DNA from: an uncultured Candidatus Saccharibacteria bacterium
GTDB taxonomy: Bacteria > Patescibacteriota > Minisyncoccia > UBA6257 > GWB1-50-10
DNA: 35,118 nucleotides
Reading direction: 5' to 3'
Assembly: GCA_964534105.1 (NCBI GenBank)
Contig: CAZHOF010000001.1
Span: 13,126 to 48,243 of the forward strand
Shown here: one piece after another, positions 3,043 through 27,509 of the stretch
Layout: each line of letters starts with the position of its first letter
How positions within the stretch are numbered: position 1 is the first letter of the stretch
Position numbers and translations under genes: made by a program
Notes under the pieces: generated by a model
Seen by the model: only the letters and a program-made list of their open reading frames with translations
Databases searched by the model: none
What the model was told of the DNA's origin: nothing

Positions 3043-3072
3043 AAGAAACGCCCCCTTAAGGGGGCGTTTCTT
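3043..3072. terminator. Bidirectional intrinsic terminator (rnhA on plus, RNase P RNA on minus)
   Basis: 13-bp GC-rich hairpin AAGAAACGCCCCC-ttaa-GGGGGCGTTTCTT, with T-rich tracts on both strands. Confidence 0.8.
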
Positions 3073-3075
3073 ATT

Positions 3076-3569
3076 GGCACATTGTAAGCCGGATTCTGTG
3101 GTCCGATAAAAAATCGGACTAGCGACAATTTATCTGGGTCGTTGATTGCTCGCGGACTCAAGCGACTCACTCCGACACAAGGTCGGAGTACGGTCTTGCA
3201 CCCGACAAGGATTTAGCCGTTTCACCCCCGCTCTTGTTATCCCTATAAGCGGGGCTGGACCTTCTACGCTGGGATAGGGTCCCTCTGACACTTTCGTGCC
3301 AGAGCGTCTCTGTTCGCACCTCTCGCATTACTGCGGCGGGCTTTTCACCCGTGCCTTGATCCGACGATGAGGTCGGATCGGGAGTCCGGACTTTCCTCTG
3401 CCAAAATTGTTCGAGCGAAACGAGAATGCAATTTTGAGCGTCTCGCCACAGTTCCGACCTCGTCGGAACGACGGCGGGCCCGCCTTCGCATAAAGCTTTG
3501 GCGGGTTCTCAATTTTGTAATCACTCGCGATGCTCGCGAACGAAATTGGAAGCTGTCGCTTAATGTACC
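3076..3569 (-). ncRNA. rnpB: RNase P RNA, bacterial type A, unusually long (about 494 nt)
   Basis: The minus strand carries the conserved type A blocks: AGAGGAAAGTCCGGACTCC (CR-I/P4), GGGTGAAAAGCCCGCCGCAGTAATGCG, GCGAACAGAGA, GCTTGAGTCCGCGAGCAATC..CCAGATAAATTGTC and ACAGAATCCGGCTTAC (CR-V). The 5' GGTACATTAAGC can pair with the 3' GCTTACAATGTGCC (P1/P2). A promoter lies just upstream. Confidence 0.85.
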
Positions 3570-3575
3570 ATTTTA

Positions 3576-3604
3576 ATAATACGAGTATTTGTAAAAATGG
3601 TCAA
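3576..3604 (-). promoter_or_regulatory. Sigma70-like promoter for rnpB
   Basis: The minus strand reads TTGACC, a 17-nt spacer, then TATTAT. The putative start, about 7 nt downstream, coincides with GGTACATT. Confidence 0.5.
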
Positions 3605-3616
3605 ATATCGTATACT
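3589..3616 (+). promoter_or_regulatory. Possible promoter reading into the tRNA-like fragment / tRNA-Thr region
   Basis: TTGTAA, a 16-nt spacer, then TATACT. It ends about 13 nt before the tRNA-like 5' half. Confidence 0.3.
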
Positions 3617-3629
3617 AGAGCTTGACGAA

Positions 3630-3662
3630 TCCGCCTTAGCTCAGCTGGTAGATCCACCTGTG
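3630..3662 (+). pseudogene. Degenerate tRNA 5' half (tRNA-Ala-like), interrupted in the anticodon region
   Basis: TCCGCCT-TA-GCTC-AGCTGGTA-GA(T)C-CACC-TGTG has the layout of a tRNA 5' half. It resembles the 5' halves at 27127 and 27225. No matching T-arm or acceptor 3' strand follows directly. Confidence 0.45.
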
Positions 3663-3730
3663 TCCCAAATCGGGTTCCGGACGAAAAGTAGCGGGATTGT
3701 GTCCTTTTACCTCAAACTTTGTTTTCGGGA
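3663..3730 (+). mobile_element. 68-nt insertion-like or intron-like element with TCCC...GGGA termini
   Basis: Starts TCCCAAAT and ends TTTTCGGGA; the termini are complementary. It is followed by TGTGG-GCGGTGAC, which resembles the TCGGGA-CAA-TGTGG-AGGTCACC junction at 27428. Confidence 0.35.
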
Positions 3731-3752
3731 TGTGGGCGGTGACTTTCGCCAA

Positions 3753-3894
3753 GCCCCTCACCTTTTCTTAATTTTCCGGCTATAATTTATATTAATTGCC
3801 GATGTAGCTCAGTTGGTAGAGCAACGCTTTCGTAAAGCGTGGGTCGTCGGTTCGAATCCGACCATCGGCTCATGATCGAGAAAAGGTGAGGGGC
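3753..3894. repeat. 15-nt perfect inverted repeat bracketing tRNA-Thr
   Basis: GCCCCTCACCTTTTC (3753-3767) and GAAAAGGTGAGGGGC (3880-3894) are exact reverse complements. They lie 30 nt upstream and 9 nt downstream of the tRNA. Confidence 0.85.
3798..3870 (+). tRNA. tRNA-Thr(CGT)
   Basis: Full cloverleaf: GCCGATG-TA-GCTC-AGTTGGTA-GAGC-A-ACGCT-TTCGTAA-AGCGT-GGGTC-GTCGG-TTCGAAT-CCGAC-CATCGGC-T. CCA is not encoded. A TATAAT lies at 3781-3786. Confidence 0.95.
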
Positions 3895-3972
3895 AAGCAA
3901 AGATTTCTCGGCCTGCCACGCTGATTTTGGAAAAATTGTGCGGGATTCGAATCTGGGAGGTAGCTCAAAGAA

Positions 3973-4677
3973 ATGACAAACATCGACTCGAATACAATTT
4001 CAATTTCTGTCCTGGCGGGTGCGGGCGGAGACGATGCGAAAGATTGGGCTCGTATGCTTATACGCATGTATGAGCGGTATTCCGTGCAAAAGGGATGGAA
4101 AGCAAGATTATTGAATGACACCACGTTGGAGGTGAAGGGCGAGGGCGTGTACGGGAAATTGAACAGAGAGTCCGGAGTGCATCGCTTAGTTCGCATCTCG
4201 CCCTTCGATGCGAAAAAACTGCGGCACACTTCCTTTGCGTTAGTTGAAGTTCTCCCGGAACTTCCCAATATAGAGGCAAGCCAAATCGCAATTCCAGAGA
4301 GAGACCTGAAAGTCGACTTCTCGCGTTCCGGAGGACCTGGAGGACAAAACGTAAATAAAGTTGAAACAGCGGTTCGTATCATGCATCTCCCAACGGGTCT
4401 CGTCGCGGCATCCCAAGCAGAACGATCGCAGGCAGGGAACAGGGAAATTGCCTTACGTCTTTTGAAGGCGAAACTCTTCCTCCTTATGGAAAAGAAGCAG
4501 GAGCGTGAACTTGCAAACCTGAAGACGAAAGTGCAGCCGGAGTGGGGTCATGAGATCAGGTCCTACGTTCTCCATCCCTACAAACAAATCAAAGATCACG
4601 AAACGGGAAAGAAAATGTCCCAAGCTGAAGAAGTACTCGAAGGCAATCTTGATTTATTATTTAAAAAACTGGGTTAA
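3973..4677 (+). CDS. prfB: Peptide chain release factor 2, short form lacking the N-terminal domain 1
   Basis: Contains AGAGGDDAKDWARML, the SPF motif (RISPFDAKK), the GGQ motif (SGGPGGQNVNKVETAVRI), and WGHEIRSYVLHPY. It is only 234 aa, and an in-frame TAG at 3961 prevents extension upstream. Confidence 0.85.
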   Translation: MTNIDSNTISISVLAGAGGDDAKDWARMLIRMYERYSVQKGWKARLLNDTTLEVKGEGVYGKLNRESGVHRLVRISPFDAKKLRHTSFALVEVLPELPNIEASQIAIPERDLKVDFSRSGGPGGQNVNKVETAVRIMHLPTGLVAASQAERSQAGNREIALRLLKAKLFLLMEKKQERELANLKTKVQPEWGHEIRSYVLHPYKQIKDHETGKKMSQAEEVLEGNLDLLFKKLG

Positions 4678-4731
4678 CGATGCTATACACTGCACGCTTA
4701 TTATGCTTTCTGCTATGATATAACTGCTTAT

Positions 4732-26850: not shown

Positions 26851-27093
26851 ATGCACTTTGTTTATGTGTTGAAAAGTACACGGGATGGCCATCGCTATGT
26901 TGGAAGCGCGAATGACGTGGAACGCCGTTTTCGAGAACACCAGCGCGGCAAAGTAAGCTCGACAGAACAGCGGCGACCCCTTATGCTTCTATACAGCGAG
27001 TGCTATACCACTCAAAAAGAAGCACTACAGCGGGAACAGTTTCTGAAGTCCGGAAAGGGGAGACAGTGGCTTGATGCAAGAGGGATACGGTAG
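26851..27093 (+). CDS. Small GIY-YIG nuclease family protein (YhbQ/UPF0213-like)
   Basis: 80 aa: FVYVLKS..DGHRYVGSANDVERRFREHQRGK...T...RP..LLYSE.Y....EAL.RE..LKS. Confidence 0.8.
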   Translation: MHFVYVLKSTRDGHRYVGSANDVERRFREHQRGKVSSTEQRRPLMLLYSECYTTQKEALQREQFLKSGKGRQWLDARGIR

Positions 27094-27126: not shown

Positions 27127-27161
27127 GGCCCCGTAGCTCAGTTGGTAGAGCACTACATTTG
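27127..27161 (+). pseudogene. tRNA-Ala-like 5' half, ending inside the anticodon
   Basis: GGCCCCG-TA-GCTC-AGTTGGTA-GAGC-A-CTACA-TTTG, then non-tRNA sequence TCCCGAT. Confidence 0.7.
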
Positions 27162-27211
27162 TCCCGATATTGTTCAAATTTTTCAAATTTGATTACAATA
27201 TCGAGGATCCT

Positions 27212-27320
27212 CGATAACTTTGGTGGGCCCGTAGCTTAGTTGGTAGAGCGCCACATTTGCAATGTGGAGGTCACCGGTTCGAATCCGGTCGGGTCCACCA
27301 TGGGCCCACCAAAGTTATCG
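27212..27320. repeat. 19-nt perfect inverted repeat bracketing tRNA-Ala
   Basis: CGATAACTTTGGTGGGCCC (27212-27230, including the first 6 nt of the tRNA) and GGGCCCACCAAAGTTATCG (27302-27320). Confidence 0.9.
27225..27300 (+). tRNA. tRNA-Ala(TGC), CCA encoded
   Basis: GGGCCCG-TA-GCTT-AGTTGGTA-GAGC-G-CCACA-TTTGCAA-TGTGG-AGGTC-ACCGG-TTCGAAT-CCGGT-CGGGTCC-A-CCA. G3:U70 is present. Confidence 0.95.
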
Positions 27321-27323
27321 GGA

Positions 27324-27361
27324 CAATGTAGGGGTCGCGGGTTCGAATCCCGCTCGGTCCA
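27324..27361 (+). pseudogene. tRNA-Ala-like 3' half (partner of 27127-27161)
   Basis: CAA-TGTAG-GGGTC-GCGGG-TTCGAAT-CCCGC-TCGGTCC-A. TGTAG complements CTACA of the 5' half. The acceptor complementarity is degraded. Confidence 0.7.
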
Positions 27362-27427
27362 CAAACGAGGATACTGCGTTCATTATCTCGGGATCGCGGA
27401 TAACATAATCGCATTACTCCTTGTTCT

Positions 27428-27472
27428 TCGGGACAATGTGGAGGTCACCGGTTCGAATCCGGTCGGGTCCAC
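27428..27472 (+). pseudogene. Orphan tRNA-Ala 3' half preceded by a TCGGGA junction
   Basis: 27434-27472 is identical to 27260-27298 of the intact gene (39 nt). It is preceded by TCGGGA, as at 27318. Confidence 0.8.
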
Positions 27473-27509
27473 ACGAATCACTTTAAACTACGCGTATCTG
27501 GAGCAGTCT

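Follow-up and report, generated by a model that had tools for sequence, protein, structure and literature searches.

The stretch of DNA analysed here (the window, 35,118 nucleotides, C1:13126-48243) belongs to the genome of an uncultured Candidatus Saccharibacteria bacterium (633 kb, 68 contigs, 48% G+C) and contains, between the gene for RNase P RNA (rnpB) and that of a release factor, a nested tRNA locus. We propose that a resident tRNA-Thr(CGT) gene survives at this locus (3630-3967) only as a fossil, having been overwritten from inside by a hairpin cassette that acted at the DNA level and brought the replacement of the gene it destroyed, a reading to which we assign a probability of about 70%. 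Judging from its sequence, the locus is one complete but dead tRNA-Thr(CGT)-type gene, whose collinear pieces are separated by three inserts, and the second insert carries an intact tRNA-Thr(CGT). Bacterial tRNA genes are usually seen as compact and interrupted only by rare group I introns. In the following, C numbers refer to contigs of the window's genome, G numbers to related genomes and L numbers to fetched loci or contigs; all pieces and inserts of the locus are on the plus strand.

The first piece of the outer gene, E1 (3630-3652), corresponds to tRNA positions 1-23 and comprises the 5' acceptor strand, TA and the 5' strand of the D stem, and continues through the D loop to the second base of the 3' strand of that stem. 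It is identical at 20 of 22 positions to the tRNA-Thr of a relative, with a Smith-Waterman score of 34 against 11.0±2.2 for shuffled sequences, none of which did as well (0/2000), and a 5'-half profile matched it using nhmmer with E=0.6 genome-wide and 0.036 in 40 kb. Among 165 tRNAs it is closest to the tRNA-Thr(CGT) of L066, an ordinary un-nested gene with a GCCACCT acceptor. L066 is the nearest relative by release factor (73% identity) and was found, together with L069, in a metagenome scan with the release factor as query, which returned relatives that are all distant (≤73% identity). The second piece, E2 (3736-3754, positions 24-41), holds the remainder of the D stem, the 5' strand of the anticodon stem, the anticodon loop TTCGCCA and the start of the 3' strand, with an extra A at 3742; it is identical to the L066 tRNA at 15 of 18 positions, and its stretch 3743-3754 matches positions 30-41 of that tRNA, a 12-mer that is not significant taken alone (142/2000). 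E3a (3895-3911, positions 38-53) provides the rest of the anticodon stem, the variable region and the 5' strand of the T stem. Its first part (AAGCAAAG, 3895-3902) matches exactly positions 38-45 of the L066 tRNA, and its CTCGG (3907-3911) pairs with CTGGG (3953-3957) through three Watson-Crick and two G-T pairs. The last piece, E3b (3946-3967, positions 54-76), contains the T loop TTCGAAT, the 3' strand of the T stem, the 3' acceptor strand AGGTAGC, a discriminator T and CA, and overlaps a GGGAGG located 13 nt upstream of the start codon of the release-factor gene. An initial annotation of the window, made from the letters alone, had reported a weak T-loop-like stretch at 3942-3953; it proved to be real and longer, since E3b is identical at 19 of 22 positions to the tRNA-Thr 3' ends of relatives and scores above all of 2000 shuffles against three such ends. 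Its top four matches among the 165 tRNAs are all tRNA-Thr, the L066 tRNA being second.

Once re-joined, the outer pieces (77 nt) share 64 of 76 positions with the L066 tRNA-Thr(CGT), with two 1-nt indels, and 51 of 76 with the inner tRNA. The boundaries of E2, E3a and of the third insert had been set using the L066 sequence as a guide. Because they were chosen with L066 in view, an unbiased spliced alignment was also performed with the live tRNA masked; its score of 68 is to be compared with 15.3±4.2 for shuffles (maximum 28) and at most 27 for 30 genomic controls. This alignment recovered 3630-3652, the two blocks of E2 (3736-3741 and 3743-3754) and the 3' end. The collinearity of the pieces with tRNA-Thr rather than with other tRNAs was put to the test and the anatomy held. 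E3b thus being the true 3' end of the outer gene, the live tRNA lies inside that gene, which settles in favour of the first option the suggestion that an intact arm-flanked tRNA sits inside or next to a disrupted one. The disrupted gene had been described as tRNA-Ala-like, an assignment that must be given up, both ends of the relic being closest to tRNA-Thr.

Several observations indicate that the outer gene is dead and drifting. Its anticodon has become CGC in the window, and TGC in L029 (loop TTTGCCA), a contig of the same species (ERZ27248885), position 37 is a C, and the acceptor strands pair at 5 of 7 positions in the window and 6 of 7 in L029. Such an anticodon and C37 on a Thr body, with acceptor strands that pair at 5 of 7 positions, do not make a functional tRNA as modelled by Rfam RF00005. 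Over E1 and E2, 6 of 42 bases (14%) differ between the two strains. ARAGORN recognized the re-joined pieces as a tRNA at default thresholds for L029 and only at relaxed thresholds for the window, and splicing in silico at the boundaries initially proposed (3662/3731 and variants) never produced a tRNA. The covariance-model search advised for the outer tRNA likewise gave no tRNA match outside 3798-3870 within 3300-4100 at E≤10.

The second insert, I2 (3753-3894, 142 nt), interrupts the 3' strand of the outer anticodon stem and is made of an A+T-rich spacer of 29 nt, the live tRNA-Thr(CGT) and a spacer of 7 nt, enclosed by terminal inverted repeats. The left arm (3753-3768, GCCCCTCACCTTTTCT, unchanged in L029) and the right arm (3879-3894, AGAAAAGGTGAGGGGC) are complementary at 16 of 16 positions, whereas the longest repeat found at 2000 random genome positions with the same geometry is 12 nt. 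The inverted repeat was thus correctly recognized as exact in the initial annotation, where it was given as 15 nt. The ends of I2 fall exactly where the outer anticodon stem is interrupted, this stem stopping at ...CTTTCGCCAA(GC) on the left and resuming with AAGCAAAG on the right; each flank has AA (or AAGC, which overlaps the repeat), in a target that is decayed and A-rich. No second copy of the arm sequence exists in the genome, and the arm pair had no match among 185,579 species genomes. The live tRNA (3798-3871) was detected by ARAGORN and by Rfam RF00005 with 73.6 bits, both programs finding a single tRNA at the locus. It does not encode CCA, it is intact, and it is the only tRNA-Thr(CGT) gene of the genome. 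Being 97% identical to the tRNA-Thr(CGT) of G017, while the outer gene is L066-like (84%) and shares 51 of 76 positions with it, the inner tRNA is, at sequence level, a different allele from the one it interrupts.

The first insert, I1 (3653-3735, 83 nt), lies in the D arm and has the ends CCAC...GTGG. tRNA homology stops at GGTAGA^ (3652), followed by TCCACCTGTG in the window and CCTACCCGTA in L029, and a junction of the form GGYAGA^YYTACCCG recurs in relatives, at tRNA-Thr and tRNA-Leu genes (G003, G020, G147/L069, G057, G331, G114, G406, G049) and at tRNA-Gln and other tRNA genes of several families. L029 (TGGTAGACCTACCCG) agrees with G020 (TGGTAGATTTACCCG) at 13 of 15 positions (2/2000 shuffles) and the window copy is decayed (TCCACCTG). 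In L069, a nested tRNA-Thr(CGT) lies directly upstream of the release-factor gene and its outer copy breaks at GGCAGA^TTTACCCGCC to resume after GGCGGG^; relics with the same junction are also found just upstream of tRNA-Thr(CGT) in G020 (L004: GGTAGA^TTTACCCGCCCAC) and in G003. The right end of I1 showed no significant similarity to L069, the exon resuming at GCGG (GCAG). By its left junction, I1 reads as a decayed member of the GGYAGA^TTTACCCGCC...GGCGGG^ hairpin inserts of relatives. The tRNA 5' half initially delimited as 3630-3662 is therefore genuine up to 3652, but the segment 3653-3662, interpreted as the anticodon stem 'CCACC-TGTG', corresponds to the left end of a D-arm insert, the same GGYAGA^ junction being present in relatives.

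I1 contains a TCCC...GGGA stretch (3663-3730), the ends of which are present as described, and which may be the decayed remainder of one hairpin unit or of two (TCCCAAATCGGGT, followed by TCCGGACGAAAAG...CTTTGTTTTCGGGA). It had been thought to enclose the live tRNA; it belongs instead to this separate upstream insert, while the live tRNA is in I2, with ends that are the inverted repeat. A predicted stem (3671-3686/3718-3734) is still paired in L029 despite changes at 3675, 3676, 3679, 3683 and 3730, and a covariation test on it gave 112/500, two sequences offering no statistical power. An apparent compensatory change at 3738/3747 (GGCGG/TCGCC hairpin) was discarded, these bases being positions 26 and 34 of the outer tRNA and the match probably a coincidence. 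I1 also holds a degenerate third copy of the right arm of I2 at 3683-3695 (GAAAAGTAGCGGG compared with GAAAAGGTGAGGG). An open reading frame (ORF) of 62 aa on the plus strand (3597-3785), running through the dead tRNA and I1, is open in both strains and is called as a gene in several metagenome annotations. With no family match and no sign of purifying selection (13 non-synonymous and 8 synonymous codon differences between the window and L029), it is probably spurious.

The third insert, I3 (3912-3945, 34 nt), is located at the border of the T stem and T loop and reads CCTGCCAC...GTGCGGGA, its limits being set by the flanking tRNA homology. It may be a decayed hairpin insert with G+C ends, of the CCTGCC type that occupies loops of relatives' outer tRNAs, such CCTGCCTGCCGGCAGGCAGG inserts being present in L046, L057 and L070.

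The locus is not isolated. The claim that the motif occurs twice in 35 kb was borne out and can be extended to the genome, in which four other nested loci were recognized: Ala (window 27127-27473), Val-CAC (C5 5428-5660, minus strand), Thr-TGT (C7 2675-2910, minus strand) and Gly-CCC (C19 7291-7591, plus strand), the last three with outer halves around an arm-flanked inner tRNA. The Ala insert (27162-27323) has the canonical form described below and is followed by a second orphan 3' half starting at 27434; the C7 locus is also of canonical form, its outer Thr-TGT remaining a perfect cloverleaf when a 166-nt insert is cut out in silico. A survey of the 37 tRNA genes of the genome, suggested with the initial annotation, found long flanking arms at three, all nested: Thr-CGT (16 nt), Ala-TGC (13 nt, or 19 with the acceptor) and Val-CAC (13 nt), with Met borderline at 10 nt. 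The detailed parallel drawn with the Ala locus fared less well. The break at TG^TCCC, said to repeat that at 27161, is no closer to the Ala junction than shuffles are (237/2000), homology having stopped at 3652 in the D arm; with the 27-kb fragments, the locus shares a generic D-arm box and, weakly, the right junction, but not the interior 3663-3730 (835/2000). The supposed TTCGGGA junction like that at 27.4 kb retains a weak similarity at the right end (TTGTT-TTCGGG---ATGTGG, 29/2000), although L029 has TTCGTGG there. Nor is the gene broken at anticodon position 35/36 as had been supposed: one break each is found in the D arm, anticodon stem and T arm.

In relatives, the canonical design consists of an outer exon, a first hairpin TCCCGA...TCGAGGA, a second unit TCCTCGA-arm-(tRNA with the same anticodon)-arm-TCGGGA, and the second outer exon. 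When 201 genomes of the order were scanned for the pattern, 48 matches were obtained, compared with 21 for reversed-pattern controls, and about 17 of the 48, from many families, clearly have an anticodon-loop junction of the form ...TTTG^YYCCGA following a tRNA anticodon stem. Counting TCCCGA...TCGGGA pairs throughout the genome was uninformative, these hexamers being too common. Relatives also carry further families of hairpin inserts (CCCCGTTAGA...TCTAACGGGG and CCTGCCTGCCGGCAGGCAGG), and GIY-YIG ORFs of 82-85 aa lie within the first hairpin in L049, L053 and L055. The most elaborate loci include a triple-nested tRNA-Ala (L048, G025:C54) and a tRNA-Thr(GGT) enclosed by an outer tRNA-Thr whose D arm, anticodon loop and T loop each hold an insert (L167, G020:C25); in G034, a nested outer tRNA-Ala reads intact once two inserts are removed by hand, the second insert preventing ARAGORN from scoring it. 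Other outer halves are truncated or imprecisely joined (L048 GGGACA^CAATG, L052). The window's genome has four paralogous GIY-YIG genes of 80-87 aa (window 26851-27093, C24 6377-6637, C59 530-766 and C54 2114-2344), three of which directly adjoin tRNA genes. A literature search found no paper describing hairpin-ended replacement-tRNA cassettes of bacteria from the Candidate Phyla Radiation (CPR), and the family apparently is unpublished.

From these comparisons, the Thr locus appears to be a decayed member of a family of elements that cut a tRNA gene and bring its replacement. The inserts would be small hairpin-ended DNA elements, common in Parcubacteria-type (CPR) bacteria, that land in tRNA genes, mostly in or beside loops. 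Some would bring a substitute tRNA that keeps the amino-acid identity, and some a gene for a GIY-YIG nuclease of 80-85 aa. The cassette would then be kept, as the host cannot lose its only working tRNA, while the interrupted gene decays, and repeated rounds could leave orphan halves and genes nested in one another. The old promoter (3589-3616) probably drives transcription of the live tRNA, perhaps together with the TATAAT (3781-3786) in the A+T-rich spacer of I2. In a transcript reading through the locus, the 16-bp arms would pair, and the resulting stem could be a target of RNase III, which is encoded on C7, ahead of RNase P cleavage and 3' trimming.

The comparison with same-species sequences bears on this scheme. 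Ten metagenome contigs covering the Thr locus are collinear with the window; L029 is the only one that differs, by 29 substitutions that all fall in 3564-3792, the following 908 nt (3793-4700) being identical. This sharp boundary of divergence at the 5' edge of the live tRNA points to recombination between diverged lineages at that position. A consensus scan identified a promoter-like sequence on the plus strand (3589-3616: TTGTAA 3589-3594, 16 nt, TATACT 3611-3616) that reads into the dead outer tRNA, and another on the minus strand (3604-3576: TTGACC 3604-3599, 17 nt, TATTAT 3581-3576) that reads towards rnpB. The segment 3588-3622, with both sites, has no difference from L029 and the next 61 nt have 17 (28%); this conservation within a divergent stretch suggests that the old predicted promoter is still in use. 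Since the outer gene drifts while its promoter is kept, as seen in two strains, replacement at the DNA level is favoured over RNA splicing. Four of the ten contigs end within the Thr locus, and ends from other samples lie at 3562, 3662 and 3817, so that assemblies break there.

Some features weigh against the reading we propose. The locus has two marks of the cassette family, collinear outer pieces and an intact inner tRNA of the same identity with long arms, but lacks a third, namely arms continuing the acceptor helix with TCCCGA...TCGGGA at anticodon position 35/36: the arms of I2 do not extend the acceptor stem of the tRNA but are separated from it by 29 and 7 nt, the ends of the insert are GCCCC...GGGGC, and it is inserted in a stem, after outer position ~39-41, and not at the loop apex. 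The unbiased alignment did not recover E3a as a separate block. No GIY-YIG gene adjoins the Thr-CGT locus or the nested loci of C5, C7 and C19, and the ten population contigs show neither an empty site nor mobility; empty and filled variants of the Ala and C7 Thr-TGT loci were likewise absent from same-species contigs. Many outer tRNAs of relatives are perfect after in-silico removal of the inserts, which would fit removal at the RNA level as well, and the promoter and the processing stem invoked here are predictions from the DNA letters.

The alternative that survives best, though we consider it unlikely, involves no mobile element: a local duplication of tRNA-Thr, template switching or a hairpin-mediated rearrangement would have been followed by decay, the palindromes being by-products such as split terminator hairpins. 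Placed head to tail, the arms (AGAAAAGGTGAGGGGC followed by GCCCCTCACCTTTTCT) indeed form a perfect bidirectional terminator-like palindrome, a degenerate third arm copy lies at 3683-3695, rnpB is inverted between relatives, so that the region does rearrange, and no transposase or integrase is found nearby. However, the inner tRNA is 97% identical to that of G017 and the outer one 84% identical to that of L066, with only 51 of 76 positions shared between them, and such different alleles are not those of a recent local duplicate. Moreover, the same junction sequences occur at different tRNA genes in many families, and some inserts contain a nuclease gene.

It is more improbable still that the inserts are RNA intervening sequences, cut at the base of a flush helix, with the exons ligated by an unrecognised bacterial pathway and the inner gene as an 'intron-encoded' tRNA. 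In favour of this view, many outer tRNAs of relatives become perfect cloverleaves without their inserts, even when there are two or three, most inserts are in loops, their ends are conserved across the order-level group, and the stem 3671-3686/3718-3734 is paired in both strains. Against it, the outer Thr gene cannot work (CGC/TGC anticodon, C37, one or two acceptor mismatches, 14% divergence between strains), and neither group I nor group II introns gave a signal. The EndA profile (PF01974) matched none of 41 related genomes while detecting the archaeal positive controls, and RtcB was found in 8 of the 41, neither in the window's genome nor in G034; excision at the RNA level is thus unlikely. 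A blunt cut across a continuous helix would also be needed, which fits neither a bulge-helix-bulge (BHB) motif nor RNase III, and the imprecise junctions and truncated outer halves of L048 and L052 are hard to accommodate. Finally, the inner tRNA matches the outer anticodon or amino-acid identity wherever both are readable, which makes the outer gene redundant. In its boldest form, in which flush-ended hairpin inserts would define a new bacterial class of intervening sequences with a protein pathway lacking EndA and RtcB, nested loci would be polycistronic precursors giving two or three tRNAs, and the outer Thr-CGT product would have become dispensable and decayed, the proposal appears equally improbable to us.

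tRNA genes are common targets of integrative elements, which leave partial copies of them behind. An archaeal example is known (PMC3293823), but we regard as very improbable that the fragments seen here are attL/attR-type scars of integrase-mediated elements: they are collinear, non-overlapping parts of one gene and not direct repeats of a 3' segment, the inserts measure just 34-142 bp, no recombinase gene is present, and the neighbours are core housekeeping genes in conserved synteny. A perfect inverted repeat around a 110-bp segment with TATAAT and a tRNA could also recall an invertible segment, that is a phase-variable promoter and tRNA switch, which was rejected as scarcely credible since all ten metagenome contigs have the same orientation, no invertase gene is nearby and flipping the sole tRNA-Thr(CGT) gene would be costly.

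The replacement cassette that we favour resembles several known systems and differs from each. Group I introns of bacterial anticodon loops, for instance in tRNA-Leu(UAA), likewise interrupt tRNA genes, may hold the gene of a homing nuclease and invade cognate genes that have no intron. In contrast, the inserts described here are hairpins of 34-160 nt with flush complementary ends, located in the D or T arm or in the anticodon stem or loop; they carry a whole replacement tRNA, and the interrupted Thr gene is dead and not spliced. No group I core was matched with Rfam in 3300-4100 at E≤10, nor in the whole window at gathering score, and the inserts are too short to hold one. The genome has, on C23 (988-2222, plus strand), a tRNA-Leu(TAA) reported by ARAGORN with an anticodon-loop intron of 1144 nt, probably a classical group I intron with an ORF.

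Archaeal BHB introns and multi-intron or split tRNA genes, for which a mobile-element model of tRNA gene disruption was proposed in Caldiarchaeum (PMC3293823), are similar in having several non-canonical inserts per gene and tRNA fragments next to intact genes, a connection with mobile DNA having also been proposed. Here, however, the host is bacterial, EndA is missing from the 41 genomes, no trans-splicing leader helices are present and the inner cargo is a complete tRNA; the insert junctions, which face each other at the base of a continuous helix, do not have BHB geometry. Miniature inverted-repeat transposable elements (MITEs), Rickettsia palindromic elements, Correia/NEMIS, REP/RAYT and the IS200/IS605-derived PATEs are also short, non-autonomous hairpin inserts, of reduced genomes and sometimes within genes, and I2 resembles MITEs by the perfect inverted repeats at its ends and possibly by a flanking repeat of 2-4 bp. 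Unlike them, the elements considered here target tRNA genes, carry as cargo a functional tRNA of the target's identity and mostly lack a target duplication. No cognate transposase was identified for I2, which is single-copy in the genome and was not found in the 185,579 species genomes.

Free-standing GIY-YIG homing endonucleases such as SegB of phage T4 adjoin tRNA genes (PMC2330249), and small GIY-YIG genes are similarly found beside or inside tRNA loci here (window 26851-27093, C24 and C59; inserts of L049, L053 and L055), which by analogy suggests spread by double-strand-break repair. SegB, on the other hand, neither splits a tRNA gene nor supplies a nested replacement, and the Thr locus has no nuclease gene.

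If this interpretation is correct, hairpin elements of ultra-small Patescibacteria break a tRNA gene and supply its replacement, so that the host cannot lose them. The Thr locus would illustrate their long-term fate, with a gene fossil still readable in four pieces and three types of insert in three arms of the cloverleaf. The incoming tRNA allele differing from the destroyed one, a core gene of translation would have been replaced horizontally. From a practical point of view, nested loci break assemblies, give spurious ORF calls and are miscounted by tRNA finders.

In the surroundings of the locus, the order rnpB, tRNA-Thr(CGT), release factor, ftsE and ftsX is kept in related genera, and the orientation of rnpB relative to tRNA-Thr varies among them. 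The rnpB gene (3069-3458, minus strand, bacterial class A) scores 69 bits, below the Rfam gathering score of 100, and is missed by a standard Rfam search. Between the RNase H gene and the rnpB 3' end, a perfect 30-nt palindrome (3043-3072) probably serves as a bidirectional terminator. Shortly before the start of the window, around C1 12985-13085, a run of N has the same 50-nt tRNA-Pro 5' sequence on both sides, which has the look of an artefact of scaffolding and not of a nested locus. On the other side, the release-factor gene (3973-4677, plus strand, 234 aa) matches positions 97-194 of the PCRF profile and the RF-1 domain, without the N-terminal domain 1; homologues of the same family share its start point, and the distant relatives L067, L068 and L070 encode the N-terminal part.

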